Part shown: positions 4,171 through 60,458 of the stretch, in pieces | Layout of the letters: every line of letters begins with the position of its first letter | How positions within the stretch are numbered: position 1 is the first letter of the stretch | From: Anaerolineae bacterium | GTDB taxonomy: Bacteria > Desulfobacterota > Desulfobacteria > Desulfobacterales > ETH-SRB1 | Direction of reading: 5' to 3' | Length of the DNA stretch: 64,000 bases | Assembly (NCBI GenBank): GCA_035529315.1 | Contig: DATKWZ010000013.1 | Location: 17,807 to 81,806, forward strand | The notes under the pieces: generated by a model | Seen by the model: only the letters and a program-made list of their open reading frames with translations | What the model was told of the DNA's origin: nothing | Databases searched by the model: none | Made by a program: the position numbers and the translations under genes

Positions 4171-5592
4171 CTACTCAACCAATCCCAAATCGGCTATCTT
4201 TTTTTTTATGGTGGATCTTGAAATTCCCAGTATCTTGGCAGAACGGGTTCGATTACCTTTTTCTTTCTTGAGCACCTTTTTAATATAAGCTGCCTCTAAC
4301 TTTTTCAGTGTCATGTTATCGGAAAGCTGAAAGTCGGATATGTGAGGTTGATCTGCTGAAAATCGCTCTGATCCATTTTGGCGGGTTAATTCAGGAGGAA
4401 GGTATCTAAGAGTAATTTCATTATCCTGCCCGGAAAACAGAATTGCCCTTTCAATCACATTGCGCAGCTCTCTGACATTGCCCGGCCAGTCATATTTTTG
4501 AAACGCTTCCATGGCCTGGGCGGAAAAAGTCTTTTCCGTGGTCTTTGTTAAAGAAGAGTGAGACAAAAAATAGTCGACAAGCTCTGGAATATCTTCTTTG
4601 CGCTTTCTGAGCGGCGGCATATTAATCTCGAAAACATTTAGCCTGTAAAAAAGGTCCAACCGGAAGCGGCCTTTTTTTATCTCTCTTTCAATATGGCGGT
4701 TGGTTGCTGCGATAATCCTGACGTTTGCCTTTCTTTCCGTTGTTTCTCCAAGTCGTCTGAATAGACCGGAATCAAGCACGGTCAGGACCTTGGCCTGCAC
4801 AGCGCCGGCCATATCGCCAATCTCATCCACAAATAAAGTGCCTCTTTCAGCGACCTCAACAAGGCCTTTTTTATGCCTGTCAGCACCGGTAAAGGCCCCT
4901 TTTGCATAACCAAAGAGTTCGCTTTCCAGAAGGCTTTCCTGCAAACCAGCGCAATTGATATGGACAAAGGGTTCTGATGCACGCTTACCTTCCCAGTGCA
5001 TTGCTTCTGCTGCCAAATGCTTACCTGTTCCGCTTTCTCCTGAAATCAGTACAGGCAGCTCCAGGTTTTTAAACATGTCGATCCTGGCCCGAACTTCTTT
5101 TATCAGGCTGTTCCTGCCGGTTATTTCTCTGGTTCTGCTTCGTCCCGGCGTAAGCCTGCGGTGATACTCTCTCATACTATCGAGGCAGTTTAGCGAATCA
5201 TCAAGCTCACCTTGTAAACGTCTCATCTTGAGCAGGCTGTCAATATGGGCCTTTAGTATGGCCACATCAATCGGTTTGGCCAAAAAACCGTCTACACCTG
5301 CCTTAATGGCTTTTATATTGCTCTCACGGTCATTTAAGGCGGTAATTGCCACAATCGGAATCTTGAATGTCTTAGGATCGGATTTCAGCCTACGGGTTAC
5401 CTCGAATCCGTCGATCCCGGGCATCATCAGGTCGAGCAGGATAATATCAGGAAAAGACCCGGCAACCTTTTTCAATGCCTCTGATCCACTCCCGGCTTTT
5501 TGGGGGGAAAAGCCAAGAGTGACAAGATAAGCCTCAAGGACAGCCAGATTGGCTTCGCTATCATCGACGATTAGTATTTTATCATGAGTCAT
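4171..5592 (-). CDS. Sigma-54-dependent response regulator (NtrC family): REC + AAA+ + Fis-type HTH; candidate top-tier flagellar activator
   Basis: 473 aa. REC with DIILLDLMMPGIDG. AAA+ Walker A GESGTGK and the GAFTGA sigma-54 contact loop (YAKGAFTGA). ESELFG, FRLDLFYRLNV. C-terminal HTH RTRSAKILGISRSTIKKK. Confidence 0.9.
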   Translation of the reverse strand: MTHDKILIVDDSEANLAVLEAYLVTLGFSPQKAGSGSEALKKVAGSFPDIILLDLMMPGIDGFEVTRRLKSDPKTFKIPIVAITALNDRESNIKAIKAGVDGFLAKPIDVAILKAHIDSLLKMRRLQGELDDSLNCLDSMREYHRRLTPGRSRTREITGRNSLIKEVRARIDMFKNLELPVLISGESGTGKHLAAEAMHWEGKRASEPFVHINCAGLQESLLESELFGYAKGAFTGADRHKKGLVEVAERGTLFVDEIGDMAGAVQAKVLTVLDSGLFRRLGETTERKANVRIIAATNRHIEREIKKGRFRLDLFYRLNVFEINMPPLRKRKEDIPELVDYFLSHSSLTKTTEKTFSAQAMEAFQKYDWPGNVRELRNVIERAILFSGQDNEITLRYLPPELTRQNGSERFSADQPHISDFQLSDNMTLKKLEAAYIKKVLKKEKGNRTRSAKILGISRSTIKKKIADLGLVE

Positions 5593-15124: not shown

Positions 15125-15157
15125 GTTTCCTGCCTCCTCTTCTGTATGTGAAGTAAA

Positions 15158-15172
15158 GCAATTTGTGTGCCA
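15158..15172 (-). promoter_or_regulatory. Sigma-54 promoter for flgF-flgG-flgA-flgH-flgI-flgJ
   Basis: The minus strand reads TGGCAC-acaaa-TTGCT. ~34 nt upstream of ATG 15124, with AGAGGAGG in between. Confidence 0.8.
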
Positions 15173-15433
15173 CATGGACGGAGATCGGGAGGCGGAAAGC
15201 AGAGAGCGGAGAGCGTGGAGGAGCGGAGAGCGTGGAGCGGAGAGCAGGGAGCAGAGAACGGAAATCGGAATGAATGTCAAATGTGGAGCTCACCTATGTC
15301 AAAAACTGCTCTATTGGGCAAGGCAATCAGCATCAGGAGACAGGCAATTTTGTTTATAACAGGAAATTTTTTCCTGTTCGGCAGGCTCTTTTATATTGGT
15401 AGCAGTTTACGGTTTACAGTTATCGGTTCACGG

Positions 15434-15490
15434 TTGAAATCAATATCCAAAATGCTTCAATCGTTGCATAGTTCATTGAAAAAACTGTGA
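15434..15490 (+). pseudogene. Remnant of a second four-helix-bundle (Avd-like) gene: last 18 codons only
   Basis: The plus strand encodes LKSISKMLQSLHSSLKKL*, compared with the intact copy's LKSISKTLQSLHGSLKK (35038-35427, opposite strand). It is flanked by the same acggtt/gtgaaccg repeat words. Confidence 0.7.
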
Positions 15491-15579
15491 ACCGTAAACC
15501 GACAACCGTTAACTGTCACCTTTATCTTTTCCCATTCAACATTCGATGTTGGACGTTAGATGTTCGATGTTCATCTTTT

Positions 15580-15873
15580 TTAATCCCCTAACCCCTGCCC
15601 CCTGTATCGTTCATTGAGCGAATAAACAAAGGCCAATATTTCCGCGACAGCCTTGTAAAGCTCGGCAGGAATCTGTTCATCCATATCGAGCCGGCTCAGG
15701 ATCTGTGCCAGAGCAGGATCTTCCTTTATCGGCACACTATGTTTTTTTGCGAGTTCTATGATCTTTTCGGCAATGGCGCCCCTTCCCCTGGCGGTAACCC
15801 TCGGCGCCTGATCTTTTTTTCCGTCATATTTTATGGCAGCGGCAATTGTTGTCTCTTTTTTGTCTTTGTTCAT
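15580..15873 (-). CDS. Free-standing FlhB C-terminal subdomain homologue (YlqH / FhlB-domain type)
   Basis: ~97 aa. IAAAIKYDGKKDQAPRVTARGRGAIAEKIIELAKKHSVPIKEDPALAQIL...IPAELYKAVAEILAFVYSL aligns with the FlhB in this window (LAVALSYDQTSTSAPKVVAKGAGFIAENIKDIARKNNVPIVDNKPLARVL...IPANLYRAVAEVLAFVYSM). The alignment begins just after the FlhB NPTH site. No TM region and no NPTH motif. Confidence 0.85.
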   Translation of the reverse strand: MNKDKKETTIAAAIKYDGKKDQAPRVTARGRGAIAEKIIELAKKHSVPIKEDPALAQILSRLDMDEQIPAELYKAVAEILAFVYSLNERYRGQGLGD

Positions 15874-15940
15874 AAAAATACCTAAGTGCTTTGATTCGTA
15901 AATACAGTGACGCAATTTTTTATATGGGTCTCTACTCCTG

Positions 15941-16078
15941 ATGGGTTGAAGACTTATAAGTGCCTAAAGTGAGCTAAAGTGCCTAAAATGCCTAAAGTTA
16001 ATGTACGCCTCCAGCGGGCTAATTTTAAAGTTATAAGTGCTTTAAATACTTTAGCTCACTTTAGGTACTTCAAATTTA
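15941..16078. repeat. Inverted arrays of the word cctaaagtg between the FliK-like and FlhB-C-like genes
   Basis: aagtgcctaaagtgagctaaagtgcctaaaatgcctaaag ... ctttaaatactttagctcactttaggtacttc. The two arms are reverse-complementary word arrays. Confidence 0.8.
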
Positions 16079-16080
16079 TT

Positions 16081-17175
16081 TCATGCCAAAATATCTACGC
16101 TTTCCAGGGCAAACAGGTTTTGAAACTCGCTGGATTCAGCTCTTGTTTTTAAATCATCCTTATCTGTCACACACGTTAAATAATCTATATCATAGCCTAA
16201 AGCCGTAAGCTTTTCTCCAAGTTCCTCTAAAAACAATCTAATAAAATTACATATGTTTTCATCCTTACATTTCAACACACAGCTTATTTTCTTTGTTTTA
16301 ATTTTTGCCTGGACAACAACATCGCCCAAAACATCCATGTTCAGCAAAAACAGCACATTCTTCTCGTTCCGGCGGCCTTTGTCCTTTGAATCCCGATCTC
16401 CCAATTTTATAAATATCTTTGCCAGGCCCATATTCTCCGGGAACAGCAGAGGAACTTGAAACATATATTTACTATCATATTCCTGAAATAAATAATTTAT
16501 TACCCGATGGGAGTCAATTGTTTGCAAAGAGGAACGGATAAATCCGGCAAGTTTTTCCGCTGCAGGAAGATTTCCGGTTTTCACCAACGGCTGAAGCCTG
16601 CCGGACATCCTTATCAAGAGTTGCTTCAGGTTTTGAGAGGCATCCCTTACATTCTCCATCGAGTAACCGAACCTGCGGACATAATCTCTAAAAAAGAGAG
16701 GGTTTTTTAAACTTTCCCTGGAGAATATCAGAGATTTTAATATGCCTTGTATATTCTTGACATTTTTCTTCCCAAGATGCGCTGCAAGGTCTCCTAAATT
16801 TTCAGGGCTGAACCTGTCGATACCGTCTCTGAAAAATTCAAAAAGGGCTTTGGGGTTTGAACGGTAAAATCTCAAACAATCCATTAACCTGGAATTTTGC
16901 GATATTTCATTGGCAACAATACGAAGGACAACCCCGGGATGCAGTTGCATCACCCTTACCGCAATCTTTTCGCCTTTTTTGAGCAATAGCCCGGAATCTG
17001 CCACAACCATGCTGTTTTTCAGCGAAATCAACGCCTTCCCGTAGCGAGGGGTTTCCACTATTTCCGCTTCCACCACTTCGCCGACAGAAAGAGGAGGCAA
17101 AAGTTCCGCCTTTTTTTGAATTTGTAAAAGGTGATTTAATTTATGGGATGCTATTATGGAGGGAAGAATTTTCAT
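16081..17175 (-). CDS. FliK-like protein (putative Flg_hook-type C-terminal domain)
   Basis: 364 aa. N-terminal LSVGEVVEAEIVETPRYGKALISLKNSMVVADSGLLLKKGEKIAVRVMQLHPGVVLRI. C-terminal VLFLLNMDVLGDVVVQAKIKTKKISCVLKCKDENICNFIRLFLEELGEKLTALGY has the same pattern as the FliK C-domain at 36259-37911 (RLTLNPPRLGTLNVDVLVRDNKVHVMLQPENNDVRQILQSNMESLKSSLRNHGL). The similarity was judged by eye only. Confidence 0.45.
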   Translation of the reverse strand: MKILPSIIASHKLNHLLQIQKKAELLPPLSVGEVVEAEIVETPRYGKALISLKNSMVVADSGLLLKKGEKIAVRVMQLHPGVVLRIVANEISQNSRLMDCLRFYRSNPKALFEFFRDGIDRFSPENLGDLAAHLGKKNVKNIQGILKSLIFSRESLKNPLFFRDYVRRFGYSMENVRDASQNLKQLLIRMSGRLQPLVKTGNLPAAEKLAGFIRSSLQTIDSHRVINYLFQEYDSKYMFQVPLLFPENMGLAKIFIKLGDRDSKDKGRRNEKNVLFLLNMDVLGDVVVQAKIKTKKISCVLKCKDENICNFIRLFLEELGEKLTALGYDIDYLTCVTDKDDLKTRAESSEFQNLFALESVDILA

Positions 17176-17608
17176 TCTTTTTTCGATGAAGGTCTAAAAT
17201 AAGACATATCTCTCCTTCAGATAAATTCAACATATCGGCTATCTCTTTTTCAGCCAGACCTTGATCGGCCATTTTTATAACAGCTTCATATTTTTCCCCG
17301 CAACTCGTATCTCCTGACGTTCGATCTTCAAAAATGGCATCTGATTTTTTTATAAGGGTTCTCAATTGATTCTCTTTTTCATTCAGGACATATATGAAAT
17401 CCTTTACTTCATTTAAAGCCTGAAAAAGGCGATCTGTAGAACGCCGGGAGTTTTCGATCACCTTATTGAATTCAGAAAAATTTTTTGAGCCTATTCCCTG
17501 TGGTCTCTTTTTTATTTCTCTGTTTGCCACCCTGATAAGAAATACAATAGCAAGGCACAGCGCTATGTCTGCAAGGATCTGAAGCCCCAGCATAAACTCT
17601 ATGGTCAT
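17141..17608 (-). CDS. Membrane-anchored protein with a C-terminal HTH-like motif (DUF2802-like flagellar-cluster protein)
   Basis: 155 aa. N-terminal TM LGLQILADIALCLAIVFLI. C-terminal MADQGLAEKEIADMLNLSEGEICLILDL resembles a sigma-70 region-4/LuxR-type HTH. The family assignment is from memory of DUF2802 and is not verified. Confidence 0.4.
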   Translation of the reverse strand: MTIEFMLGLQILADIALCLAIVFLIRVANREIKKRPQGIGSKNFSEFNKVIENSRRSTDRLFQALNEVKDFIYVLNEKENQLRTLIKKSDAIFEDRTSGDTSCGEKYEAVIKMADQGLAEKEIADMLNLSEGEICLILDLHRKKNENSSLHNSIP

Positions 17609-17609
17609 C

Positions 17610-17912
17610 TTATACCTTTATATCCACCTTTCCCCCGGGTTCATCGTCAGCAACAGCTCCATCTTTTTCTTTTTTTGCGCTGTTTTCTCCAGGATTCTTT
17701 TCCCTCTTACCACGCTCCTCTTCCTCCCTGGTCACAAGCTGCTCAGCTTCTGCAGGGGCTTTAACTTTTTCTCTCAGCTCCCTGGCCTCTTCGGCTAATT
17801 GAGCTTCAAAATGTCTCTGCTGAACATCAGCCTGATGCTGCTGAACCTGCTGGACACGCTCAATTGCATTGGATTGCAATAATACCTGTTGCACATCAAG
17901 CGATCTGACCAT
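17610..17912 (-). CDS. Hypothetical Gln-rich/charged 100-aa protein, first gene of the accessory operon
   Basis: MVRSLDVQQVLLQSNAIERVQQVQQHQADVQQRHFEAQLAEE, then a highly charged tail. I recognise no domain. Coding is supported by tight coupling to the next gene (stop 17610, next start 17608). Confidence 0.5.
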   Translation of the reverse strand: MVRSLDVQQVLLQSNAIERVQQVQQHQADVQQRHFEAQLAEEARELREKVKAPAEAEQLVTREEEERGKREKNPGENSAKKEKDGAVADDEPGGKVDIKV

Positions 17913-17960
17913 GGCTTTCGCACCCCCTTAAAGAGTAGTAACAGTTCACTGGGAACTGAA

Positions 17961-18010
17961 TTAAGGATTAGAGGATTAAGGATTAGAGGATTAGAGGATT
18001 AGAGGATTAG
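17961..18010. repeat. Tandem 8-9-nt word array (ggattaga/ggattaag)
   Basis: ttaaggattagaggattaaggattagaggattagaggattagaggattag. The reverse-complement words (ctaatcc/ttaatcc) recur at 7965-8060, 10775-10836, 13481-13500, 18110-18140, 18300-18330, 26800-26817, 29825-29863 and 63780-63815. Confidence 0.9.
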
Positions 18011-18195
18011 TTGTTCCGCACGATTATGCCTTTGGAAACCTTGCTGACACCAGATAAACCCTGACAACCAATTTATGGGCTTTTCGCCAAAGCTTCAAAT
18101 CTTTCCAATGCACTAATCCTTACCCCTTAATCCTTAATCCTAACCATCGTAAACGGTTACAAAAAGTAAAGGTTGTTGGTTATCCTCCAACTGTT

Positions 18196-18223
18196 TTATC
18201 GTCACAATCCATCATAATCTTTA
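18196..18223 (-). promoter_or_regulatory. Sigma-28-type promoter candidate for the accessory operon (17912 to 15580)
   Basis: The minus strand reads TAAA-N16-GACGATAA. The N16 spacing matches the other minus-strand sigma-28 sites in this window. There is one mismatch in the -10 element. ~285 nt upstream of ATG 17912. Confidence 0.55.
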
Positions 18224-18329: not shown

Positions 18330-19097
18330 CTAATCCCGATAAGGTATCCTTATCAAAATAACATTAAAGCCCGACTCATATGTAATATGAAAAAGAGTAT
18401 CATACTTCCTCAGGAGAAATAGGGTGTGTAATAATCTTTTATCTTTATCCGGGCCATTAAGGGGATAGCAGTCTGAACTCCAGTTTTCGATTAGTTCTTT
18501 TATTTGGATTTCGGGAATGGGAGCTCCGGTATCCTCGATTTTGACATATACATGTGAATCATCATGGCCTGTAGAGACAATCAGCTCCTTTAATTCGCTG
18601 TCTTTCATGGCATTTACCGAATGTCTGATTATTGAGGACAGAAAAATGGAATAATCGGCTTTTACTCCTGATATTTCCGGAATTTCCCTGTCCAATACCA
18701 GTTTCTTTTTAATATTATACTTAACATCCGGGTAAAACTGAAGGAATTTCATTTCAGCCTCTACAAGCTCGGATAAATTGATTTTTTGGGAGACAGTGTC
18801 GGCCAGCCTCTGAAATTTTCCTGCCACATCATTAAACAGGCTGAAAAATCTGTCCGCTTCCTTTGCAATCAAACCAGCATCACAAATTATCTTTTTGCAG
18901 CCTTCCAGGATCTCAGCATCTATGTTGTCGTTATTATTTACAATAAGTTTAAGACGCTCTGCCCTCCTCTGCAAAAGCTCAGAACGACCCAAAATCCCAT
19001 TTAAGGAGTTGGAAAAGTCGTGAAGAATGCCGGGAATAAGCTCCATGAGATAACTATTTAACATATCAACATGTTCTCTGTGGGCTAAGAGGTGCAA
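18330..19097 (-). CDS. Sensor-less cytoplasmic histidine-kinase-like protein (DHp + degenerate ATPase domain)
   Basis: H-box GILHDFSNSLNGILGRSELL. N-box-like IIRHSVNAMKDS. G1-like IEDTGAPIP. I can see no G2 (GxGLG). No TM or sensor domain. The track start 19097 is a TTG; ATG 19064 (MLNSYL) is an alternative. Confidence 0.65.
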   Translation of the reverse strand: MHLLAHREHVDMLNSYLMELIPGILHDFSNSLNGILGRSELLQRRAERLKLIVNNNDNIDAEILEGCKKIICDAGLIAKEADRFFSLFNDVAGKFQRLADTVSQKINLSELVEAEMKFLQFYPDVKYNIKKKLVLDREIPEISGVKADYSIFLSSIIRHSVNAMKDSELKELIVSTGHDDSHVYVKIEDTGAPIPEIQIKELIENWSSDCYPLNGPDKDKRLLHTLFLLRKYDTLFHITYESGFNVILIRIPYRD

Positions 19098-19144: not shown

Positions 19145-19606
19145 TTACAATAAAATAAACTTGGTAAAGTACACATTTTTTATTATTTCATCACTCATAA
19201 AACTATTCAAGGCAATTTTAATTTTTTCTTTTAAGCTTCTCCTGATTTCGTACAAATCGGAAAGCTCTTTTAATGTGTTATATATGATCTTTCTCAACTC
19301 GATCCTCTCTTGCGGCAGTTTCATCCCTTGATTCAGCTCAACAACCACATCACAAACCAGAATCCTGTCTTTCCTCTGATTATCTTTAAAATAAATAATA
19401 AAGTCATTAAAATATTCGAACCTTTCTTCCATGAAAGCAGTCACCGGCAAACTTTTCTTCACAGAGTCTATCGGCCCCTGACCATCTAACCCTATGATCT
19501 TCTGCCCTTCCGCCCCCTGACCATTGGCAGAACCGCCGCCTGCAAACAACACAATGCACAGGCATACGACCATCAGCGCCTTTTTGTAATATCCGGTAAT
19601 AACCAT
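19145..19606 (-). CDS. FliL-like paralogue
   Basis: 153 aa with an N-terminal signal/anchor. FNDFIIYFKDNQRKDRILVCDVVVELNQ ... IKNVYFTKFILL parallels the canonical FliL at 29864-30358 (LVINLMDDNGERYLKAVIQIEV ... VRRVYFTEFLIQ). Confidence 0.55.
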   Translation of the reverse strand: MVITGYYKKALMVVCLCIVLFAGGGSANGQGAEGQKIIGLDGQGPIDSVKKSLPVTAFMEERFEYFNDFIIYFKDNQRKDRILVCDVVVELNQGMKLPQERIELRKIIYNTLKELSDLYEIRRSLKEKIKIALNSFMSDEIIKNVYFTKFILL

Positions 19607-19624: not shown

Positions 19625-20404
19625 TCATAATTTCGGTGACGGAATCGCTAACCCCGTCGCTGAAGCGGGACTACGGGGAATGTGCTCTCTATTGCGGTTC
19701 AAGACGCCCTTTAGTCTCAGTATTGCCTGGGAGTGGATCTGACAGACTCTTGATTCCGTTAATTCCAAGGTCAGACCTATTTCCTTTAATGTTAACTCCT
19801 CATAATAATAGAGGGACAACACCAGTTTCTCTTTTTCGGGAAGTGAATCTATCGCATTCTTCAATATGTTTTTAAGTTCCATGTCGGCAAGAATGGAAAA
19901 AGGATTGTTTTGATCAATTTTTTCCAAAACATCATGCCTGCCGTATTTTTCACAGTAGCTCGGCGGCAAATCATCCTTGCTCAGAATACAGACACCTCTT
20001 GCTTCATCAAGAAGTTTATAATAATTTTCAAGTGATATGCCGAGATAATGCGAAATCTCTTCATCAGATGGATGACATCCGAACTTTTTCCGCAACACCT
20101 CAAGCGCATCTTCAAGCATTGTTTCTTTGCTTCTAACCGATCTTGGCACATCATCTCTTGATCTTAACTCATCTAATACAGCCCCCCTAATCCTGAACTG
20201 TGCGTATGTTTCAAACCGCACATTCTTTGTTTCGTCAAATTTTTCCAGCGCCGACATCAATCCAATTATGCCGGCGCTGATTAAATCGTCTTTACTCACA
20301 TGATCGGGGAGTCTCATGGCAATCCTCCCGACAATGTTCTTAACAAGAGGCACATATTTAATTATCAGTTTTTCACGCTTTTTTTTATCAGTCATTTTTG
20401 TCAA
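19625..20404 (-). CDS. fliA: Flagellar sigma factor FliA (sigma-28)
   Basis: 259 aa. Region 2 (LISAGIIGLMSALEKFD, FETYAQFRIRGAVLDELR). Region 4 HTH (LSLYYYEELTLKEIGLTLELTESRVCQIHSQAILRL). Confidence 0.95.
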   Translation of the reverse strand: MTKMTDKKKREKLIIKYVPLVKNIVGRIAMRLPDHVSKDDLISAGIIGLMSALEKFDETKNVRFETYAQFRIRGAVLDELRSRDDVPRSVRSKETMLEDALEVLRKKFGCHPSDEEISHYLGISLENYYKLLDEARGVCILSKDDLPPSYCEKYGRHDVLEKIDQNNPFSILADMELKNILKNAIDSLPEKEKLVLSLYYYEELTLKEIGLTLELTESRVCQIHSQAILRLKGVLNRNREHIPRSPASATGLAIPSPKL

Positions 20405-20523: not shown

Positions 20524-21387
20524 TTATGACCTTCCAAAAAATTTAATAGTCCCGTTTTCATAATCTTCCGGCGGTTTCAAGCACAACTTCTCGATAATTT
20601 TATACATGCTTTTACTCGCCTTTGAATCAGAAAAAATCTCTGTCAGCAGTCTTTGTCTCCTCACCGCTTTTGAAACATTTTGATCATAAGGTATATATCC
20701 CAGATACTCGATTGGAAGATCAAGGAAATGATTCGCTGCATTGCTCAACCTCGTATAAACCTCTGTGGCTTCATTTGAATCCCTAACCATGTTGACAATC
20801 AGCTTAAAGCACTTTGCTTTATAGGTTTGATAAAGTATTTTGATTAAGGCGTAAGCATCCGTCAATGAAGTGGGTTCAGGTGAAACAACTACAATAATTT
20901 CCCTGGCTGCCATATTAAAATACATGACATTGTCGGCAATTCCGGCAGCTGTATCAATAAGCATAAAATCGAAGTCTTCAGCCAGTCCATCCATCTCCTC
21001 CAGAAGGGTGAACTTTTGCCCTTTTGACAGCTCAGCCATCCCGGGAATTCCTGAAGACGCCGGCAGAATCTTGATGCCTCCGGGGCCTTCGATAACAGCC
21101 TCAGACAGGGTTTTTTCGCCGTTAAGGACGTGGTATAAATTATATTTCGGGGTAATTCCAAGGATCACATCTATGTTGGCCAACCCTGTATCAGCATCGA
21201 GCAGCAAGATTCTTTTCCCCATCTTCGAAAAAATATATGCAAGGTTCACGGTTATATTTGTTTTCCCAACGCCCCCTTTGCCGCTGGTAATAGAGATAAC
21301 GCGAGTATTGCGATTATATCTTTTTTGTTCAATTATCGGGGAACTCCCCTTTCTCTTCATTTCTCTCAACACTCCAGCCTGATCCAC
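20524..21387 (-). CDS. flhG: Flagellar number regulator FlhG (MinD/ParA-type ATPase; FleN/YlxH)
   Basis: 287 aa. N-terminal MDQAGVLREM (DQAxxLR FlhF-activating motif). Deviant Walker A SGKGGVGKTN. Directly downstream of flhF. Confidence 0.9.
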   Translation of the reverse strand: MDQAGVLREMKRKGSSPIIEQKRYNRNTRVISITSGKGGVGKTNITVNLAYIFSKMGKRILLLDADTGLANIDVILGITPKYNLYHVLNGEKTLSEAVIEGPGGIKILPASSGIPGMAELSKGQKFTLLEEMDGLAEDFDFMLIDTAAGIADNVMYFNMAAREIIVVVSPEPTSLTDAYALIKILYQTYKAKCFKLIVNMVRDSNEATEVYTRLSNAANHFLDLPIEYLGYIPYDQNVSKAVRRQRLLTEIFSDSKASKSMYKIIEKLCLKPPEDYENGTIKFFGRS

Positions 21388-21392
21388 TAAAA

Positions 21393-22535
21393 CTACCTCC
21401 CTGATCCATGACCCACTATCAGCCTTGCAAGCTTTGCAGGATCCATTTTATTTAAATCATGGGGAACGTTCTGGCCATTTGCGGTGTAGAACACCGGTTT
21501 GCCGACATGATCAATAACATTGTAGATTGAACCAAATTTTTTTGAATCATCCAGTTTTGTAAATATAATGTTGTTATAATCTATAATATCAAATCGTGCC
21601 GCGGCATCCATCATGCTCTCCTGGCTTGATGTCATGCTTAAAACAAGATTCGTTTCCAGAGGGAGACCCATCGTCAGATATTCCTTTAATTTCAATAAAT
21701 AACTTTCATCACCACGACTCTTCCCCGGTGTATCTATAAGTATGGTATCTTTGTCGGCAAACTTATTCAAAACTCTCTCTAAGCCATTCTTTTCAGAAGC
21801 AACCTCCATGGGGACACCCATGATATCCGCATATTTTTTCAGTTGTTCCACCGCGCCTATCCGATATGTATCCGTGGTTATGATGCCCACGCTTAGTTTT
21901 TCTTTAAATAAAGAGCGTGCCGCCAGCTTTGCCAGGGTTGTTGTTTTTCCATCACCCGCAGGACCGACAAAGGCGGAAATCCTCTTTTTCCCCGTATTCC
22001 TCGTATTCTTATAAGAAGAAGCAATAGATCGTTTCATAATATTCTCAACAGCAGCCAGAGTATAATGATGGTTTTCCGGAGCTTCCGTCGAGCCATCGTT
22101 ATTTAACTCTTCTATTAATGCGCAGGCGCATTGTTTTGATACGCCTGTCGAAATCAGGTAATAATAAACTTTTGACAGAGAAGACGAAACTCTTCCATTG
22201 TTTTGAATGCCAAGAACATCGAACAGAAGACCCATTGTCTCCTTTATCTCAGTCAACTCGGCATAAACGCCCCCCTGTTTTTTGAAATCCATAATAAAGG
22301 ACTTTAACTCATTAACATCCGATCTGATTATTGAGAACGTATCCGGTCCCTCTTTTTCGCATTTTTCAGCTTCACTTTCTTTCGAAACTTCAGAATTATT
22401 ATCCCTGGCGGCAATCACCTCGAGTCTGCCCTTCAATCTTCTGCTGGAAAGCACTATGGCGTCCTGGCCCATATCCGCCTTTATCTTCTTCATAGCCTCA
22501 TTTATACTCAGCGCATCGTATCTTTTAATCTGCAT
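21393..22535 (-). CDS. flhF: Flagellar biosynthesis SRP-type GTPase FlhF
   Basis: 380 aa. G1 FVGPAGDGKTTTLAKLA, DTYRIGAVEQL, G3 LIDTPG, TKLDD. Confidence 0.9.
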   Translation of the reverse strand: MQIKRYDALSINEAMKKIKADMGQDAIVLSSRRLKGRLEVIAARDNNSEVSKESEAEKCEKEGPDTFSIIRSDVNELKSFIMDFKKQGGVYAELTEIKETMGLLFDVLGIQNNGRVSSSLSKVYYYLISTGVSKQCACALIEELNNDGSTEAPENHHYTLAAVENIMKRSIASSYKNTRNTGKKRISAFVGPAGDGKTTTLAKLAARSLFKEKLSVGIITTDTYRIGAVEQLKKYADIMGVPMEVASEKNGLERVLNKFADKDTILIDTPGKSRGDESYLLKLKEYLTMGLPLETNLVLSMTSSQESMMDAAARFDIIDYNNIIFTKLDDSKKFGSIYNVIDHVGKPVFYTANGQNVPHDLNKMDPAKLARLIVGHGSGR

Positions 22536-24609: not shown

Positions 24610-24725
24610 TTTTAATCCACATTTACGGTTCAAGGTTCAGGGTTTAGGGTTCAAGGTTCAGGGTTACTGGTTGTTGGTTCTCTGATATCTAATCTTCTCA
24701 CCTTCTCACCCTCCGACCTCTAACC

Positions 24726-25790
24726 TCAACGACTCTTCATGCTGTAAACAAATGCCAGTACTTCAGCAACCGCCCTGTACAAATTTGCCGGTATCATCTC
24801 ATCCACCTCCACCTTCTTATACAATACTCGTGCCAGAGGCTTGTTATCAACAATGGGCACATTGTTTTTCCTGGCAATATCTTTTATATTCTCAGCTATG
24901 AAACCAGCCCCTTTAGCAACCACCTTCGGCGCAGACGTGCTTGTCTGATCATAGCTAAGCGCCACGGCAAGATGGGTGGGATTGGTTATAACCACATCCG
25001 CTTCAGGAACGCTTGCCATCATTCTTTTTCTGGCCGCATCTCTCTGAAGACGCTTTATTTTTGCCTTTACGAGGGGATCTCCTTCTGCCTGCCTGAATTC
25101 ATCTTTTACCTCCTGTTTTGACATTTTAAGATTTTTTTCATATTCCCACTTCTGATAAATATAATCTAAAACAGCAAGAATTATAAGCACAAGGCAAACT
25201 CTGAGAATAATCTTGAAGGCAACCCAGCCGATGTAAATCAATATTCCCCACACGCTCTGGTCCGGCAACGGAATAAAATTCTCTATTTCCCCCTTGATAG
25301 TCACATAAGCAACAAAACCGACTATTGAAATCTTAAATATACTTTTTGCCAGTTCCACAAGGGACCTGATTGAAAACAGTTTCTGGAATCCCTTAATCGG
25401 ATCAATCTTTGACAGTTTCGGCTGCACCGATTCTGCGGAAAGCACAAAACCCACCTGCATGTAATTGGCAAGCAACGCCATGGAAAATGCAGTCGTAAGA
25501 AGAGGGAAAAGCATGGCAAAAATCTTATACACAAGGTTGGTTGAAAGATGCTGAATATTATCGCAATTAACATGGAATTCACCTGCCTGGGCGAGCGACC
25601 ACCTTGTAAAAGCCATCATTTTTTCGACTAAAGCGGAAGAACCAAACCAGAAGAAGACCAGACACGCCAGCAGAACCGCCACAGATGCAACCTCCCGGCT
25701 TTTTGCAACCTGGCCCTGCTTTCTCGCCTTTTCCCGTTTCTTGGGAGTAGCCCGCTCTGTCCTTTCCTGATCTTTATTCTGTTCAGCCAT
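24726..25790 (-). CDS. flhB: Flagellar export switch protein FlhB
   Basis: 354 aa. Four TM segments. Autocleavage motif VVITNPTHLAVAL. C-terminal LYRAVAEVLAFVY. Confidence 0.95.
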   Translation of the reverse strand: MAEQNKDQERTERATPKKREKARKQGQVAKSREVASVAVLLACLVFFWFGSSALVEKMMAFTRWSLAQAGEFHVNCDNIQHLSTNLVYKIFAMLFPLLTTAFSMALLANYMQVGFVLSAESVQPKLSKIDPIKGFQKLFSIRSLVELAKSIFKISIVGFVAYVTIKGEIENFIPLPDQSVWGILIYIGWVAFKIILRVCLVLIILAVLDYIYQKWEYEKNLKMSKQEVKDEFRQAEGDPLVKAKIKRLQRDAARKRMMASVPEADVVITNPTHLAVALSYDQTSTSAPKVVAKGAGFIAENIKDIARKNNVPIVDNKPLARVLYKKVEVDEMIPANLYRAVAEVLAFVYSMKSR

Positions 25791-26726: not shown

Positions 26727-26817
26727 CTTCTCACCCTCTTCCTTTCTGCTCTTCCTACCCTCCTACCCTCTCACCCTCTCACCCTCTCACCCTCTCACCT
26801 CCTAATCCCTTAATCCC
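26727..26817. repeat. Tandem word array (ctcaccct)n in the fliQ/fliR gap
   Basis: cttctcaccctcttcc...ctaccctcctaccctctcaccctctcaccctctcaccctctcacctcctaatcccttaatccc. Confidence 0.9.
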
Positions 26818-28314: not shown

Positions 28315-28833
28315 TTACTTCAAGGTATTAAGTCTCTCGGCAGGGGAAACGATGTCCGTCAATCTAACCCCGAACTTCTCATTAACCACAACCACTTCAC
28401 CCATGGCAACCAATCGATTGTTGATAAAAACATCCATCGGCTCTCCTGCAAATTTCGTCAACTCTATAACCGAACTCTGGCCTAACTGAAGAAGCTCACT
28501 TATCAACATCCTTCCTCTGCCCAGCTCAACAGTCACTGTGAGGGGTATATCCAGAATAAAATCCAGATCCAGCTCTGATTTTTTTGTTTTACCCTGTTTT
28601 ATTTCCTCGAACCTGACGTTACTAACCTCTTTTTTCTCAACCGGTTTTTTCTTAACCGGCTTTTCTTCAACCGGCTTTTCTTCAACTGGCTTTTCTTCAA
28701 CTGGCTTTTCTTCAACCGGCTTTTCTTCAACCGGCTTGACAGATGCCTTCATCTCCTCCTGAACATCGTCCCCGCCGATTTCTTTATCGTTTTTTGTTTC
28801 TTTTACTTCTTCCGCCGACTCATTCTGTTCCAT
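28315..28833 (-). CDS. fliN: Flagellar motor switch protein FliN, with an N-terminal KPVEE tandem-repeat linker
   Basis: C-terminal SpoA domain ILDIPLTVTVELGRGRMLISELLQLGQSSVIELTKFAGEPMDVFINNRLVAMGEVVVVNEKFGVRLTDI. ATG 28833 lies 1 nt after the fliM stop (TGATATG). Confidence 0.9.
   Translation of the reverse strand: MEQNESAEEVKETKNDKEIGGDDVQEEMKASVKPVEEKPVEEKPVEEKPVEEKPVEEKPVKKKPVEKKEVSNVRFEEIKQGKTKKSELDLDFILDIPLTVTVELGRGRMLISELLQLGQSSVIELTKFAGEPMDVFINNRLVAMGEVVVVNEKFGVRLTDIVSPAERLNTLK
28636..28740. repeat. In-frame 15-bp tandem repeat (~7 units) in fliN, encoding (KPVEE)n
   Basis: Plus-strand unit ttcaaccggcttttc repeated with single-base variants. Protein: KPVEEKPVEEKPVEEKPVEEKPVEEKPVKKKPVEKK. 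Confidence 0.95.
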
Positions 28834-28834
28834 A

Positions 28835-29824
28835 TCAATACACCTCTTCCCCAATCATAAGTTTTGTCACCTCTATCGCACGGTTACCTTTATAAAGCCC
28901 TGGCTGTCCCTTAAACTTAAGGATATTTTCCACATAAACATCCAGACTATCGCTGCAATATTGATCCAGAGATATAACATCCCCCTTTTTCAGGCTTACA
29001 ACTTCTCTTCCGCTCAGCTCCGTTCTGCCCAGCTCAACAGTGAGGTTTACATTTACGCGTCTAAGACCCTTCTCAAAGCTGTTCGTCCATTCTTTATCAG
29101 CCACAAATGTTTCTTCCTGATAACCTGCCTGTAATTTTTTACTGATCGGCTCTATCATTAAATAAGGTATGCAAAAATTAATTTTGCCCGAAGAAAAACC
29201 CAGGTCAACTTCAAATTGCATAACAAGCACAACGTCAGTAGCCGCTACAAGCTGTACAAACTGTGGATTTGTTTCCGCTCTCTGATAGACGACATCAAGT
29301 TGTATAATTGTTTTCCACACCTCTTTAAAATCAGACAGTGCGTTTAATACAATCTTCTTTATCAGATTGTTTTCTATGATTGTAAACTCCCTTCCCTCAA
29401 TTTTAACCGTTTCCCGTCCGGATCCACCGAAGATAATATCAACCAGAGCAAATATAACTCGCGATTCAATAATAAAAAGTGAAACCCCTTTTAATGGATT
29501 CATTTTAAAGAGATTAAGACTCGCAGGCACTGGAATTGTTTTCATAAATTCTTCATACTTGGCCATATGCACCGATAAAGTGTTAACAGTGACAATCTTT
29601 TTCAACACCGACGACAGGGTTGTTCTGAACATTCTGGCAAATCTTTCAGCTGTCGTCTCCAGGGCCGGCATCCTTCCTTTTACAATTCTTTCCTGGCCGG
29701 TTAAATCATATGGATGGACTTTTGACGGATCATGGTCTTCTTCTTGCTGCTTTGTCTCAACCTCACCTTCTGATACCCCCTTTAAAAGGGCATCCACCTC
29801 TTCCTGTGACAGTATCTGGGACAT
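28835..29824 (-). CDS. fliM: Flagellar motor switch protein FliM
   Basis: 329 aa. N-terminal CheY-P binding motif LSQEEVDALL. Middle and C-terminal FliM domains. Confidence 0.95.
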   Translation of the reverse strand: MSQILSQEEVDALLKGVSEGEVETKQQEEDHDPSKVHPYDLTGQERIVKGRMPALETTAERFARMFRTTLSSVLKKIVTVNTLSVHMAKYEEFMKTIPVPASLNLFKMNPLKGVSLFIIESRVIFALVDIIFGGSGRETVKIEGREFTIIENNLIKKIVLNALSDFKEVWKTIIQLDVVYQRAETNPQFVQLVAATDVVLVMQFEVDLGFSSGKINFCIPYLMIEPISKKLQAGYQEETFVADKEWTNSFEKGLRRVNVNLTVELGRTELSGREVVSLKKGDVISLDQYCSDSLDVYVENILKFKGQPGLYKGNRAIEVTKLMIGEEVY

Positions 29825-32718: not shown

Positions 32719-32734
32719 ATGGGACTTTGGAAAA

Positions 32735-32749
32735 GCAAAGAGTGTGCCA
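32735..32749 (-). promoter_or_regulatory. Sigma-54 promoter immediately upstream of motA
   Basis: The minus strand reads TGGCAC-actct-TTGCT. Only 16 nt separate TTGC from the motA ATG, and no SD lies in between. Confidence 0.65.
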
Positions 32750-32752
32750 AGA

Positions 32753-32825
32753 GGATCAGGGATCAGGGATCAGGGATCAGGGATTAGGGATCGGGGGTCG
32801 GGGGTCGGGGGTCGGGGGTCGGGGG
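32753..32825. repeat. Tandem 7-8-nt word array (gatcagg x3-4, then gggggtcg x5)
   Basis: ggatcagggatcagggatcagggattagggatcgggggtcgggggtcgggggtcgggggtcgggg. The inverted partner cccctgatccctgatccctgaac lies at 33072-33094. Confidence 0.9.
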
Positions 32826-32939
32826 TCGGGGTTAACAGTTTACGGTTATCGGTTTACAGTTAACAGTTGATTAAAGGAAATAGTGTAAACCGTAAACCGT
32901 GTGGTCAAAGGTCGAGACCTTTGCATAACTGCTGTTTTA

Positions 32940-33021: not shown

Positions 33022-33150
33022 AATATTGGTGTTTTGCAAAGGTCTCAGGTCGAGGGTGAAAGACGTAATAGCCCCTGATCCCTGATCCCTGAACAGAAAG
33101 GGTTTTTGACGGGTCGTCAGAAATTTGACATATAACCGCCCAGGTTGTCA

Positions 33151-35037: not shown

Positions 35038-35427
35038 TTACCTCCCTTTTTGTTGTAACCGTTCACGGTTGTCGGTTAACGGTTTTTTCAATGAACCATG
35101 CAAGGATTGAAGAGTTTTGGATATTGATTTCAAGTCTTGAATTAATTCCTTTGCATCTAAATCAGAAAATATATTAAGCTCTCGTGAAATATAAATCTGC
35201 GCTCTCAGATCCACAGCCGATTTTTGTGCAATATTTATAAACCGCTGGAAATCCGGAATACTCTTTCTTTCGCTTCCTTCCGCGATACTTGATGGAATAG
35301 ATATAGATGAGCGCAACATTTGATCTTTCATTGCATAATCACGGCAATCTCTTAATAATTTATAAAGACGTACCGATAACCTGCAAGATTTTGCCCGAAC
35401 TTCTAAATCTTCAAAAGAGGTCCCCAT
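35038..35427 (-). CDS. Four-helix-bundle protein (23S rRNA intervening-sequence protein / Avd-like family)
   Basis: 129 aa. LYKLLRDCRDYAMKDQMLRSSISIPSSIAEGSERKSIPDFQRFINIAQKSAVDLRAQIYISREL is the characteristic pattern of this family (SIPSNIAEG-type motif). The tail (KKPLTDNRERLQQKGR) is encoded by acggtt-type repeat words and overlaps the flgE SD. Confidence 0.8.
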   Translation of the reverse strand: MGTSFEDLEVRAKSCRLSVRLYKLLRDCRDYAMKDQMLRSSISIPSSIAEGSERKSIPDFQRFINIAQKSAVDLRAQIYISRELNIFSDLDAKELIQDLKSISKTLQSLHGSLKKPLTDNRERLQQKGR

Positions 35428-35497
35428 AATTCTCCTCTACCTTCTGTTTTTTTCAACCCTGAACCGATAAATACAAACCGTGAATGGTTACCTTTTG

Positions 35498-36258: not shown

Positions 36259-37911
36259 TTACGCAAACAAACTGATACGCTCGCCACTCCGGAAGCGCGG
36301 GTTTTCTTCCTCAAGCAATGTTGGGTCATGATTCACAAAATCTTGCCCACCTCCCTGGTCTTCCTGGTTCCCTTCCCGTTTTCCGCCTTCTCTAAATAAT
36401 GTTTCGTTTTGCCCTGATCTATAATCAGCGCCATAATTAGCGCCATCCGATTTTTCCTGAACAGACACATTTATGGTATCAACGATCAATCCGTGATTAC
36501 GAAGAGAGCTTTTGAGACTTTCCATATTTGACTGCAATATCTGCCTAACATCATTATTTTCCGGCTGAAGCATAACATGCACTTTATTATCCCTGACAAG
36601 CACATCCACATTCAGTGTGCCCAGACGGGGTGGATTGAGCGTAAGTCTCACCCTTCCAGGCCTTTTTACGCTGGATGCAATCTGATTGATCAAAGCCCGT
36701 GGTTCTATGGCGCGACTGTTCACGCTCTCATTAACGGACGACGATCTGCCGGATGCATGAAAAGTCGCATTATGATATCCATTGGCGGAAAAACCACTGC
36801 CGGATGAACGCTCCGGTATTGGAATTCCTTTGTGAAGAATCTCTGTTTTATGATCGGGGAATTCCTTAACTCCTGTTTTTTTATGCTCGGCAGCAGCCTC
36901 TTCAACATTAAGGCCCAAATGTTTCAGTGAATTCCCGATGTCATTTCTGTGGCCGCTCTTTACAAGTGTAAAAGATTTTTTTTCTGTTTTGTCAGGCTCT
37001 GCAACGCTCTTTCCTTCCACAACAGCCGCATTCTTCAAACCGGATTTCAAAAGTCCGGGGGCATTCTCCATTTTTGCCCTCTGTTCTTTATTCTTTGTCC
37101 TCTGACCGCTGACCAGGGCGTTGTTTATTCCGCCTCCGCTCTCCTTAAAGTCAACACCTTTAGAAACAGCAACCGCGCCCTTTACTGTCCTGAAATTTTC
37201 TCCAACAGGATCAGCAACTCTTGCTCCCATGCTTTTCTTAAAAGCCGCATCCTTTCCGGCAACTACTCCGATTATCCCTGACTTCGGCAGCCCTGATTCA
37301 ATGCTTTGCTTATTCAATCCAGATTTCAGCGAGCCCCTGGCATCTCCGGTCAAGGCATGGTTTATTCCGGCCTCGCTCTTCTTAGGGCCACTGCTCACCT
37401 GCAGATTTTTAACTTTCCCCCGGGTCTGCTTTTGGACATCTCTCTTCGACAGCAAATCAATCTTACCGGAAAATGATCTGTTTATTTTTGTCCTCTTGCC
37501 TTTTGACGCATTCATAAAGGGATTGATATCCATCGTTGCTTCGCCCTTCAGAATGGCACCGTGTGAACTTTCCGCAATGCCCTTGCCTTTAACCAGTAGC
37601 GATCGATTCGTTTTTTCGGTCTTATCCTTCCCAGCGCCCATGATATTATTATCCGAATCTATATTAAAGGTATTGCATCGCCTGGTCGCATTACCTTTAT
37701 CGGAACGCCCCCCAATCTTCCCTTTGTCAGGGCGGACATTAAGTGGAGCTTTCTCCGTCTTTTGTGTCGTTGTACGGCATGCGTTCCCCATTACACAGGC
37801 AAACGGCATCATCTGCTCCGGTTCCTTACCGGCCTTCCCTTTCTGCAATTTTTCAGATGAACCAGGAAGACCGACGTCCTGTTGTAAATTCACCAAATTT
37901 AATTCTGTCAT
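36259..37911 (-). CDS. fliK: Hook-length control protein FliK
   Basis: 550 aa. Long K/G/S-rich low-complexity region. C-terminal Flg_hook-type domain RVRLTLNPPRLGTLNVDVLVRDNKVHVMLQPENNDVRQILQSNMESLKSSLRNHGLIVDTINV. Confidence 0.85.
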   Translation of the reverse strand: MTELNLVNLQQDVGLPGSSEKLQKGKAGKEPEQMMPFACVMGNACRTTTQKTEKAPLNVRPDKGKIGGRSDKGNATRRCNTFNIDSDNNIMGAGKDKTEKTNRSLLVKGKGIAESSHGAILKGEATMDINPFMNASKGKRTKINRSFSGKIDLLSKRDVQKQTRGKVKNLQVSSGPKKSEAGINHALTGDARGSLKSGLNKQSIESGLPKSGIIGVVAGKDAAFKKSMGARVADPVGENFRTVKGAVAVSKGVDFKESGGGINNALVSGQRTKNKEQRAKMENAPGLLKSGLKNAAVVEGKSVAEPDKTEKKSFTLVKSGHRNDIGNSLKHLGLNVEEAAAEHKKTGVKEFPDHKTEILHKGIPIPERSSGSGFSANGYHNATFHASGRSSSVNESVNSRAIEPRALINQIASSVKRPGRVRLTLNPPRLGTLNVDVLVRDNKVHVMLQPENNDVRQILQSNMESLKSSLRNHGLIVDTINVSVQEKSDGANYGADYRSGQNETLFREGGKREGNQEDQGGGQDFVNHDPTLLEEENPRFRSGERISLFA

Positions 37912-40647: not shown

Positions 40648-40709
40648 TTATTTAGGCTGGAGGCTGAAGGCTGAAGGCTGAAGGTCTTCTCCCCCTTCAG
40701 TCTAACAGC
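40648..40709. repeat. Tandem word array (aggctgaagg)n plus an inverted partner in the fliH/fliI gap
   Basis: tttaggctggaggctgaaggctgaaggctgaaggtcttctcccccttcagtctaacagcctaagagcc. Confidence 0.9.
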
Positions 40710-41450
40710 CTAAGAGCCTATCAACGACTCCCTGATTTTATTTAACTGCTGATCCAGCCTGGCATCAACTACCCCTGAATGCGTCTCTATCACAGCCCCG
40801 CCCTGACCGATTTCTTCATCCTTCTCAATTAATATATCGCCGAAACTATCGAGAAAATCGGGCTTTGCCTCTGTTATGTAACGGTGGTCTTCGGGATTCA
40901 GCCGGATACTGACCCCCTCCTTCTTATGTATATTTCTCATCGCATCTTTAAGGACGGATACTACAACTTCCCTGCCGACGCTCACTTCCTTATGTATAAC
41001 ACTGCCGGCTATTGAAAAAACAAGGTCGATTATTTCCTTTTCAGAGCCTTCCATAAATTCCTGCTTCAGCGCCTTTAATTCTCCGATCAATTTCGCAACA
41101 GATTCTGCGGCAAGAGCCAATTCTCTCTTTTCCCGATCCTTGCCCTCTATTATCCCTTTTGAAAATCCTCTGTCATAGGCTTCTTTTACCGCAATTTTTA
41201 TTCTTTCCTCTATCTGTTCCCCGGGCTGTTTCCAAGGGTCTTCACTCTCGGAACCGACATCCATGTTATTCCCACGGATATTAAAACCTGTTTCACTTCC
41301 CGGAATATGACATATACCCCGAACAAAGATAGCCCGGGCTTTTTCCCTCGAACCTCCCCGCTTGTGCCTCGCAGTGGCAGACTGGTCTGCAAGTTTAATG
41401 TCCTGCGCCTTGATAACCTTTTTGGAATCAGACAAATACATCCTCTTCAT
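40710..41450 (-). CDS. fliH: Flagellar assembly protein FliH
   Basis: 246 aa. Position between fliG and fliI. Central charged helix (EERIKIAVKEAYDRGFSKGIIEGKDREKRELA) and a FliH-type C-domain. The assignment rests mostly on synteny. Confidence 0.7.
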   Translation of the reverse strand: MKRMYLSDSKKVIKAQDIKLADQSATARHKRGGSREKARAIFVRGICHIPGSETGFNIRGNNMDVGSESEDPWKQPGEQIEERIKIAVKEAYDRGFSKGIIEGKDREKRELALAAESVAKLIGELKALKQEFMEGSEKEIIDLVFSIAGSVIHKEVSVGREVVVSVLKDAMRNIHKKEGVSIRLNPEDHRYITEAKPDFLDSFGDILIEKDEEIGQGGAVIETHSGVVDARLDQQLNKIRESLIGS

Positions 41451-51037: not shown

Positions 51038-51064
51038 TAAAGTTCTAAATCTTTTCGCCGATAA
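51038..51064 (+). promoter_or_regulatory. Sigma-28 promoter for the small ORF (and possibly the PilZ gene)
   Basis: The plus strand reads TAAAGTTC-N11-GCCGATAA (TAAA-N15-GCCGATAA), 20 nt upstream of GTG 51085. Confidence 0.8.
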
Positions 51065-51455: not shown

Positions 51456-51617
51456 CTGAGCCTTTTGCTTTTATGTTTTGATCAACCGTTAACTGTAAAC
51501 CGTGAACCGTTATCGGATAAAGCAATTGTCATTAAGCTTGACGTAGATGACAAAAAAATGACGCTTACTGTTGGAACGGTCGTTTGCGGTTCAAAAAAAA
51601 TAAGTGGGGGTGGTATA

Positions 51618-52238
51618 ATGATTGATGATTTAAAAAATTTTTCAGAAGTTAAACCGGTCGTGACAAACCATATAAAAAACGTAAAAGTAGATGACGTTCG
51701 AAATCGAGAACACGTAAGAGTAGATGACGTGCTCAAGGTTGATTACCGGAAGATTCCGCAGAAAGACTATGAGACGTGCAAAGACGACCCGGAAATTATT
51801 TTTGAAAATACTTTTGGCAAACCCTTTGAAGTGCCTAAAATTGAGAATGTTAGCTTAGAATTGCTCTACAAGCTTATATATCAGGCAAACCTGAAAATAG
51901 ACCGTATTTTAAACATACTGGAAAGCAAAAATACTGAGAAATATGAATCTGTGAGCGGTGAATATGTGAATATTAGTGGTTCCGGAATGAGATTCATCGC
52001 AAACCAGAGTTTTTCGATCAACGATATTATTGCGCTTAGAGTTTTTATTCCTTTAGTCTCCAAGACGTGGATAAATATACTTGGAAAAGTAGTCTCAATT
52101 ACAGAATCAGAGTCAGCAAATAAATACGATATTGCTGTTAAATTTGAAGAACTCTCTGAAAGCGACAGGGAAATTATCATAGGATATGTGTTTAAAAGGC
52201 AGAGAGAACTCCTGAGACGCAGCTCAAAACGCCCTTAA
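51618..52238 (+). CDS. PilZ-domain protein (putative c-di-GMP effector)
   Basis: ~206 aa from ATG 51618 (GGGGGTGG upstream). RxxxR motif in VRNREHVRV and (D/N)xSxxG motif NISGSG, separated by ~84 aa instead of the usual ~20-30. The longer track ORF (from 51465) starts inside repeat words. The stop overlaps the flaG stop (TTAA). Confidence 0.7.
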   Translation: MIDDLKNFSEVKPVVTNHIKNVKVDDVRNREHVRVDDVLKVDYRKIPQKDYETCKDDPEIIFENTFGKPFEVPKIENVSLELLYKLIYQANLKIDRILNILESKNTEKYESVSGEYVNISGSGMRFIANQSFSINDIIALRVFIPLVSKTWINILGKVVSITESESANKYDIAVKFEELSESDREIIIGYVFKRQRELLRRSSKRP

Positions 52239-60430: not shown

Positions 60431-60458
60431 CTATCGGCAAAATTTTCCTTATACTTTA
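60431..60458 (-). promoter_or_regulatory. Sigma-28-type promoter for fliD
   Basis: The minus strand reads TAAA-N16-GCCGATAG, ~135 nt upstream of the fliD ATG. Confidence 0.75.

Follow-up and report, generated by a model that had tools for sequence, protein, structure and literature searches.

Sequence evidence for a late flagellar gene set with FliK2-like and FlhX-type proteins on a Desulfobacterales-like contig, and a possible role at the export gate

The 64,000-nucleotide stretch of DNA analysed here (contig DATKWZ010000013.1, positions 17,807 to 81,806 of the forward strand; hereafter the window) carries a large flagellar and chemotaxis cluster, nearly all of it on the minus strand. This study concerns four minus-strand genes of that cluster, numbered 1 to 4 in their direction of reading, the last two of which encode a protein with a FliK C-terminal-like domain (gene 3, FliK2-like) and a free-standing homologue of FlhB-CC, the part of FlhB that follows its NPTH cleavage site (gene 4, FlhX). 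The locus is the Desulfobacterales version of an already known late flagellar gene set and not a new kind of unit. Its best explanation, to which we assign a probability of roughly 0.55, is that one sigma-28-type promoter serves two modules, one concerned with flagellar placement and the other with the export gate, and that the FliK2-like/FlhX pair acts in trans on that gate.

Gene 1 (17610..17912) encodes a clade-restricted orphan of 100 amino acids (aa) with a Q-rich N-terminus, gene 2 (17141..17608) a 155-aa FipA/FlrD-like protein with an N-terminal transmembrane (TM) segment and a C-terminal DUF2802/DUF6115 domain, gene 3 (16081..17175) the FliK2-like protein of 364 aa and gene 4 (15580..15873) a FlhX/YlqH-type protein of 97 aa. 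A preliminary description of this DNA had presented the four as tightly packed, which is true of the first three: genes 1 and 2 are separated by a 1-nucleotide (nt) gap that is conserved in relatives, and genes 2 and 3 overlap by 35 nt (17141-17175), an arrangement conserved in most related loci that suggests translational coupling. Gene 4, however, follows only after a 207-nt spacer (-4 to 278 nt in relatives) that includes a hairpin at 15958..16070 on the minus strand, built from inverted arms of CCTAAAGT-type repeats (30-nt arms, 87% complementary, no U-tract) with a predicted RNA fold of -42 kcal/mol (z -5.0); no terminator-like site was found on the minus strand of this spacer.

The order FlhG-FliA-FliL-like-histidine kinase (HK)-like-gene 1-gene 2-gene 3-gene 4-FlgF-FlgG recurs in more than 30 loci of metagenome-assembled genomes (MAGs), bearing out the proposed co-conservation of the four genes, and is retained even where the identity of gene 3 falls to 28-35%. 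Purifying selection acts on each of the four genes (dN/dS 0.08-0.33), with the lowest values for gene 4. In the window and in every locus that has both genes, fliK2-like lies directly upstream of flhX on the same strand; at one locus (L034) the two directly follow flhB and genes 1 and 2 are absent, and at another (L035) gene 1 is absent and the pair is present. Judged by these comparisons, genes 3 and 4 are the stable core of the unit.

The product of gene 4 shares 49% identity with residues 272-354 of the resident FlhB (24726-25790, NPTH at residues 270-273; BLASTP E 2e-25). As had been claimed, the match is confined to the FlhB segment after the cleavage site, beginning right after the NPTH position, and the protein has neither an NPTH nor a TM segment (maximum 19-residue hydropathy 1.2). 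It matches Pfam Bac_export_2 at profile positions 259-335 of 335 (84.8 bits, E 9e-24) and the TIGR00789 flhB_rel model over its full length (E 9.5e-31), and these alignments identify it as a free FlhB-CC homologue of the FlhX/YlqH type. It is the most conserved of the four proteins (56-88% identity, dN/dS 0.08-0.22) and shows little or no variation at the AP...AVAE(I/V)LAFVY positions. These positions are reported (Evans et al. 2013) to make up the substrate-docking patch of FlhB-C, an assignment that derives from Salmonella residues and serves as a lead only. When a plasmid collection was searched with FlhX by tblastn, the matches were mostly full-length FlhB, plus Bacillus YlqH.

The gene 3 protein consists of an N-terminal beta-barrel, a helical middle domain and a C-terminal T3S4/Flg_hook-like domain (16156..16374 on the minus strand, approximately residues 268-340). 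The preliminary description had likened its C-terminus to that of the canonical resident FliK, a 550-aa protein encoded at 36259-37911 upstream of flgD (Flg_hook E 6e-19). The direct BLASTP comparison of the two is weak by itself (E 0.046), and the likeness becomes firm at the level of the family, which comprises 2844 representatives at 50% clustering: 17 of 26 aligned members match Flg_hook, the distant full-length homologues P0197, P0174, P0213 and P0232 exceed its gathering cutoff, and a hidden Markov model (HMM) of the family, run against all open reading frames (ORFs) of the window, finds as its only other match residues 437-505 of the resident FliK (E 3e-5). In the AlphaFold2 model of gene 3 (predicted local distance difference test (pLDDT) score 74.5), residues 16-234 are predicted to form the folded beta-barrel and helical domain (pLDDT approximately 70-90). 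Foldseek searches with the AlphaFold models of gene 3 retrieve both T3S4 domains of solved structure, aligning 69 columns each with the SS domain of PscP (5cuk; probability 1.00, root-mean-square deviation (rmsd) 2.4 Å) and with Salmonella FliK-C (2rrl; probability 0.97, rmsd 2.5 Å). Profile, transitive and predicted-fold evidence thus confirms that gene 3 carries a FliK-C/T3S4 domain.

A sequence search of the PDB with the gene 3 family profile returned nothing real, and tblastn of the plasmid collection gave no useful matches for either the FliK2-like or the FipA-like protein. Within the T3S4-like domain, C299, C303 and C335 (a CxxxC and one further Cys) are invariant across the clade; C335 is missing from the most distant homologue, and Bacillus YlqG has no counterpart aligned with any of the three. 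These residues may have a metal or redox function. The reading of gene 3 as the canonical ruler FliK was rejected, given its folded N-terminal region and the separate 550-aa FliK, as was that of its C-terminal EFQNLF as an FxxxΦ gate-recognition motif, the first F not being conserved in distant members.

Comparable pairs have been described elsewhere. In Pseudomonas putida, PP_4328, which has a FliK C-terminal domain, and PP_4329 (FlhX) have been named fliK2-flhX; they constitute an operon situated beside flrD/fipA where the flagellar cluster ends, the promoter PfliK2 is experimentally FliA-dependent, and their function is given as 'still uncharacterized' (bioRxiv 10.1101/2021.08.29.457346). 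The P. putida and window loci, PP_4328 being likened to gene 3 by description, have in common a FliK-C-domain gene directly upstream of an FlhB-CC-only gene and a FliA-type promoter. In the window, unlike P. putida, a fipA-like gene and an extra orphan gene share promoter and strand with the pair, with the conserved 35-nt overlap. A flhX-fliK pair has also been noted in Nitratiruptor (PMC9321776). In Helicobacter pylori, FlhX (HP1575) is reported to be a 'spare part' that permits export when FlhB-CC is deleted (Wand et al. 2006). Since all of these are already in the literature, the unit is not undescribed, as the preliminary description had supposed, and its statement that YlqH-like homologues have no assigned function must be amended in view of the activity documented for H. 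pylori FlhX. The H. pylori and window FlhX proteins are alike in being free-standing FlhB-CC homologues with no TM domain. To our knowledge, flhX of H. pylori is not paired with a fliK-like gene.

Bacillus YlqH, annotated as an FlhB-like flagellar biosynthesis protein, is 48.8% identical to the window FlhX. In Bacillus velezensis the YlqG gene lies upstream of and overlaps that of YlqH, and the YlqG C-terminus matches positions 239-353 of the gene 3 family HMM; Pfam Flg_hook run directly against YlqG gave no match. YlqG differs from gene 3 in its length (567 aa), its N-terminal region and its annotation as a glycosyl transferase, and the ylqG-ylqH locus is situated among ribosome-biogenesis and tricarboxylic acid (TCA)-cycle genes and outside any flagellar cluster. 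On the strength of the two alignments, YlqG-YlqH is the same pair. The window pair also has the folds of the FliK-FlhB switch and of the injectisome YscP/PscP-YscU switch, namely a T3S4 domain and the FlhB/YscU C-terminal subdomain. It differs from the FliK-FlhB switch in that both partners are soluble extra copies encoded alongside the canonical FliK and FlhB, and its T3S4 protein has folded N-terminal domains in place of the secreted disordered ruler of canonical FliK.

We propose that the FliK2-like protein (a T3S4 domain with no ruler) and FlhX (a ready-cleaved, TM-less FlhB-CC copy) would together form one module that duplicates the FliK-C/FlhB-C switch interface in soluble, paralogous form, made only once completion of the hook-basal body frees sigma-28. 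The pair would most likely act in trans on the export gate: FlhX may dock at the FlhB-CC site on FlhB-CN or bind FlhB-C ligands, and the T3S4 domain of FliK2 would be its cognate partner, binding it as FliK-C binds FlhB-C. The outcome would be that filament-type (late-mode) export is stabilised or tuned, and the direction of the effect could be that of a lock or that of a decoy.

Two other readings of the pair draw upon the same observations. It is possible, although in our judgement unlikely, that FlhX is purely a spare part that backs up lost or damaged FlhB-CC, with the FliK2-like protein as an assembly or loading factor and no regulatory switching. The activity of HP1575, the start of FlhX exactly after the NPTH position with the FlhB-CC core retained, and the strong constraint on FlhX within the operon are all consistent with this idea, which nevertheless leaves unexplained both the invariant T3S4 partner, a switch effector fold, and the link to the late sigma-28 class. 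Also against it, cleaved FlhB-CC ordinarily remains bound to FlhB-CN.

FlhX might otherwise be a cytoplasmic decoy or sink which, after the switch, titrates leftover rod/hook substrates or non-exported FliK via the FlhB-C docking patch, the FliK2-like protein regulating or occupying that patch. We regard this as doubtful. The near-invariance of the presumed patch, the late-class promoter and the solubility of FlhX are in its favour, but the assignment of the patch derives from Salmonella residues and a sink would require a high copy number.

The late timing proposed for the pair depends on the promoter. A sigma-28 (FliA)-type promoter candidate is located on the minus strand at 18196..18223 (TAAAGATTATGATGGATTGTGACGATAA); it has the form TAAAGATT-N12-GACGATAA, i.e. 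TAAA-N16-GACGATAA, and is the sole zero-mismatch match to TAAA-N16-GNCGATAA in the window, in agreement with the preliminary placing of such a site before the four genes. Allowing at most one mismatch, the window holds seven sites against 1.8 expected, and, as had also been stated, others precede flgM (10379), fliS (53280), fliD (60431) and fliC (63860). The motif is kept upstream of the orthologous first gene in approximately 26 of 33 related Desulfobacterales/Syntrophales loci, in relatives as the near-identical TAAAGATT...GTGACGATAA, and because the surrounding leader is otherwise unalignable across these loci it constitutes a good phylogenetic footprint.

The distance from promoter to first ATG is 283 nt in the window, compared with 57-120 nt in relatives, because a repeat-flanked element has been inserted in the leader. 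This lineage-specific insertion (17955..18141, minus strand) has inverted arms of AGGATTA/TAATCCT-type tandem repeats, folds as RNA at -61 kcal/mol (z -3.6) and encloses the remnant of a truncated four-helix-bundle (TIGR02436-like) ORF (approximately 18040-18125, minus strand; VHWKDLKLWRKAHKLVVRVYLVSARFPKA, then a stop). The insertion is absent from relatives L001 and L026, whose leaders measure 57-67 nt. In related loci this position of the leader is occupied by different insertions.

Downstream of the four genes, an exact sigma-54 consensus (TGGCACACAAATTGCT; 15157..15172, minus strand) lies just upstream of flgF and starts the next transcription unit, so that the four genes are bracketed by promoters of the two classes. 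The exact consensus (TGGCAC-N5-TTGCT) occurs twice in the window, at 15157-15172 and at 32734-32749, both on the minus strand, and its presence beside sigma-28 sites indicates that the cluster mixes both classes. The second of these sites is just upstream of a motA/pomA-like gene. A possible internal sigma-28 site in gene 2 (17262-17288, N15 spacing, two mismatches) overlaps conserved codons. In silico, then, the assignment of the four genes to a sigma-28-class unit is supported, with a strong phylogenetic footprint.

It is quite unlikely that the four genes are instead the distal part of a flhA-flhF-flhG-fliA operon expressed by read-through, with the motif non-functional or minor. Such read-through would suit the run of closely spaced genes, all on one strand, that extends from flhA to flhX, the failure to detect a terminator-like site on the minus strand between the HK-like gene and gene 1, and the precedent of P. 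putida, whose long flagellar operons contain internal promoters (bioRxiv 10.1101/2021.08.29.457346). It does not account for the retention of the motif in leaders that have otherwise diverged beyond alignment, for the occurrence of the same motif class before fliC, fliD, fliS and flgM, or for the FliA dependence of PfliK2.

The reading that we favour, of one late promoter and two modules, places gene 2 apart from the pair. The preliminary description had termed its product a TM and helix-turn-helix (HTH)-like protein; a hydrophobic segment is indeed present at residues 7-25 (mean hydropathy 2.54), but the HTH matches are weak and the architecture is that of FipA/FlrD. Like FipA/FlrD of Vibrio, Shewanella and Pseudomonas, the gene 2 protein is approximately 155-165 aa long, has a TM segment at its N-terminus followed by a cytoplasmic region whose C-terminal part resembles DUF2802, carries a G-x15-E-x2-L motif, is encoded downstream of flhF-flhG-fliA, and occurs in a genome with both FlhF and FlhG. 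The spacing of G117/E133/L136 equals that of G110/E126/L129 in VpFipA, as compared via published residue numbers only, and 30 orthologues share an unchanged G, GE pair and LI pair. It differs in lying outside the Gammaproteobacteria and in scoring better on DUF6115 (31 bits, cutoff 27) than on DUF2802; orthologue L014 exceeds the DUF2802 cutoff with 34.6 bits. By architecture and motif, therefore, gene 2 is FipA/FlrD-like. Polar flagellation requires FipA (previously named FlrD), a membrane protein that partners FlhF by binding it through DUF2802 (PMC11620751).

Gene 1, with 11 Q in its first 40 residues and a dN/dS of 0.10-0.33, matched no Pfam or NCBIfam family, and a homologue search retrieved 67 unnamed proteins, all from the same clade. 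Because gene 2 has the architecture of an FlhF partner, the four genes are more likely two modules than one machine. The first module would comprise the orphan Q-rich protein and the membrane-anchored FipA-like protein with its DUF2802-type domain. If it behaves like FipA of the Gammaproteobacteria, the latter would bind FlhF and assist in the placement or activation of new basal bodies.

The conserved overlap of the fipA-like and fliK2-like genes may conceivably reflect a physical chain, FlhF-FipA-FliK2-FlhX, in which a pole-anchored late module would supply export gates with either a pre-cleaved mimic of FlhB-CC or a T3S4 domain that is not secreted. We consider this quite improbable; if true, it would link the switching of export specificity to the placement and number of flagella, and the widespread FlhX/YlqH family would have a physiological role for the first time. 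Least probable of all, and close to the preliminary view, is that the four proteins form a single new export-gate complex, since, despite their co-conservation and translational coupling through the 1-nt gap and 35-nt overlap, the pair persists in L034 without genes 1 and 2 and in L035 without gene 1, Bacillus holds only the pair, Pseudomonas has fipA in a different operon and FipA has its own known partner in FlhF.

Several results weigh against the two-module, gate-acting interpretation or the identifications beneath it. Some family thresholds are not reached: FlhX scores 105.9 bits on TIGR00789, a hypothetical-equivalog model, and so narrowly misses the trusted cutoff of 117.35, the gene 3 protein alone is below the Pfam cutoff (Flg_hook E 0.019), and gene 2 reaches 25.5 of the 33.5 bits demanded by DUF2802. 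The Foldseek E-values for the T3S4 match (0.06-0.5) are non-significant alone. The hairpins of the 283-nt leader and the 207-nt spacer could uncouple expression in the window genome, and in P. putida fipA belongs to a separate operon that converges on fliK2-flhX across an unrelated ORF, so that a single operon is not universal. Finally, a single mutant of flhX in H. pylori is reported to show little phenotype, so that the normal role of the protein may be subtle.

The cluster in which these genes are embedded also encodes FlhA, FlhB, FliPQR, FliMN, FlgE, FlgD, FlgM/FlgN, FliS, FliD, flagellin and the 550-aa FliK, and upstream of the operon FlhF (21393-22535), a MinD/FlhG-type ATPase (20524-21387) and FliA (19625-20404). 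Close relatives of the operon proteins come from MAGs of Desulfobacterales, Syntrophales and Thermodesulfobacteriota. The NCBI label of the source record, Anaerolineae, conflicts with all relatives and with the gene order, which is that of Desulfobacterales/Syntrophales, and the contig has probably been mis-binned or mislabelled.

Between fliA and the operon, two further minus-strand genes are conserved, one for a soluble, sensor-less HK-like protein (18330-19097) and one for a second, divergent FliL-like protein (19145-19606). Further downstream of the operon lies a gene for a sigma-54 activator response regulator (4171-5592, minus strand), which with the HK-like protein could make up an FlgS/FlgR- or FlrB/FlrC-type pair. 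FlrD/FipA was originally connected with FlrBC, which makes a possible FlrB/FlrC-type pair of note here. Elsewhere in the cluster, a FliN/FliY-like switch protein (28315-28854, minus strand) contains a 15-nt coding tandem repeat (28632-28737) that yields (KPVEE)x7 in its N-terminal linker, and the FliD filament cap (56789-60295, minus strand) is unusually long at 1168 aa, with a Flagellin_IN motif and its own sigma-28-type site at 60431-60458. A plus-strand PilZ-domain protein (51465-52238) has a sigma-28-type site upstream (51038-51064, plus strand; N15 spacing, exact GCCGATAA) and could be a late-class YcgR-like brake responsive to cyclic di-GMP.

Tandem repeats with a unit of 7-8 nt, particular to each spacer and often arranged as two arrays in inverted orientation, occur in nearly every intergenic spacer of the window; examples are found at 15958-16070, 15405-15499, 17960-18141, 24622-24672, 26757-26799, 32753-32900 with 33073-33092, and 40654-40720. 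These repeats, which resemble the short tandemly repeated repetitive (STRR)-type repeats of cyanobacteria, give long RNA hairpins of high stability (z -3.6 to -5.0) and may be RNA processing or stability elements between flagellar genes. A full-length four-helix-bundle gene of the TIGR02436 ('23S rRNA intervening-sequence protein') family is situated between flgD and flgE (35038-35427, minus strand) within an inverted pair made up of repeats, whose arms lie at 35055-35084 and 35462-35491, and the truncated TIGR02436-like copy occupies a similar hairpin in the operon leader. The arrangement looks like an intervening sequence (IVS)-like mobile or processed element.

FlhX/YlqH-type proteins and their FliK-C-domain partners span Bacillota, Pseudomonadota and Thermodesulfobacteriota, and the locus analysed here shows that the pair, its late promoter motif and its FipA-like neighbourhood are conserved far beyond the Gammaproteobacteria. 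It adds that, within the operon, constraint is strongest on FlhX and that the partner of FlhX is not a ruler, and in doing so sharpens the question of whether a soluble copy of the FliK-C/FlhB-C interface may act on the export gate after the hook has been completed.

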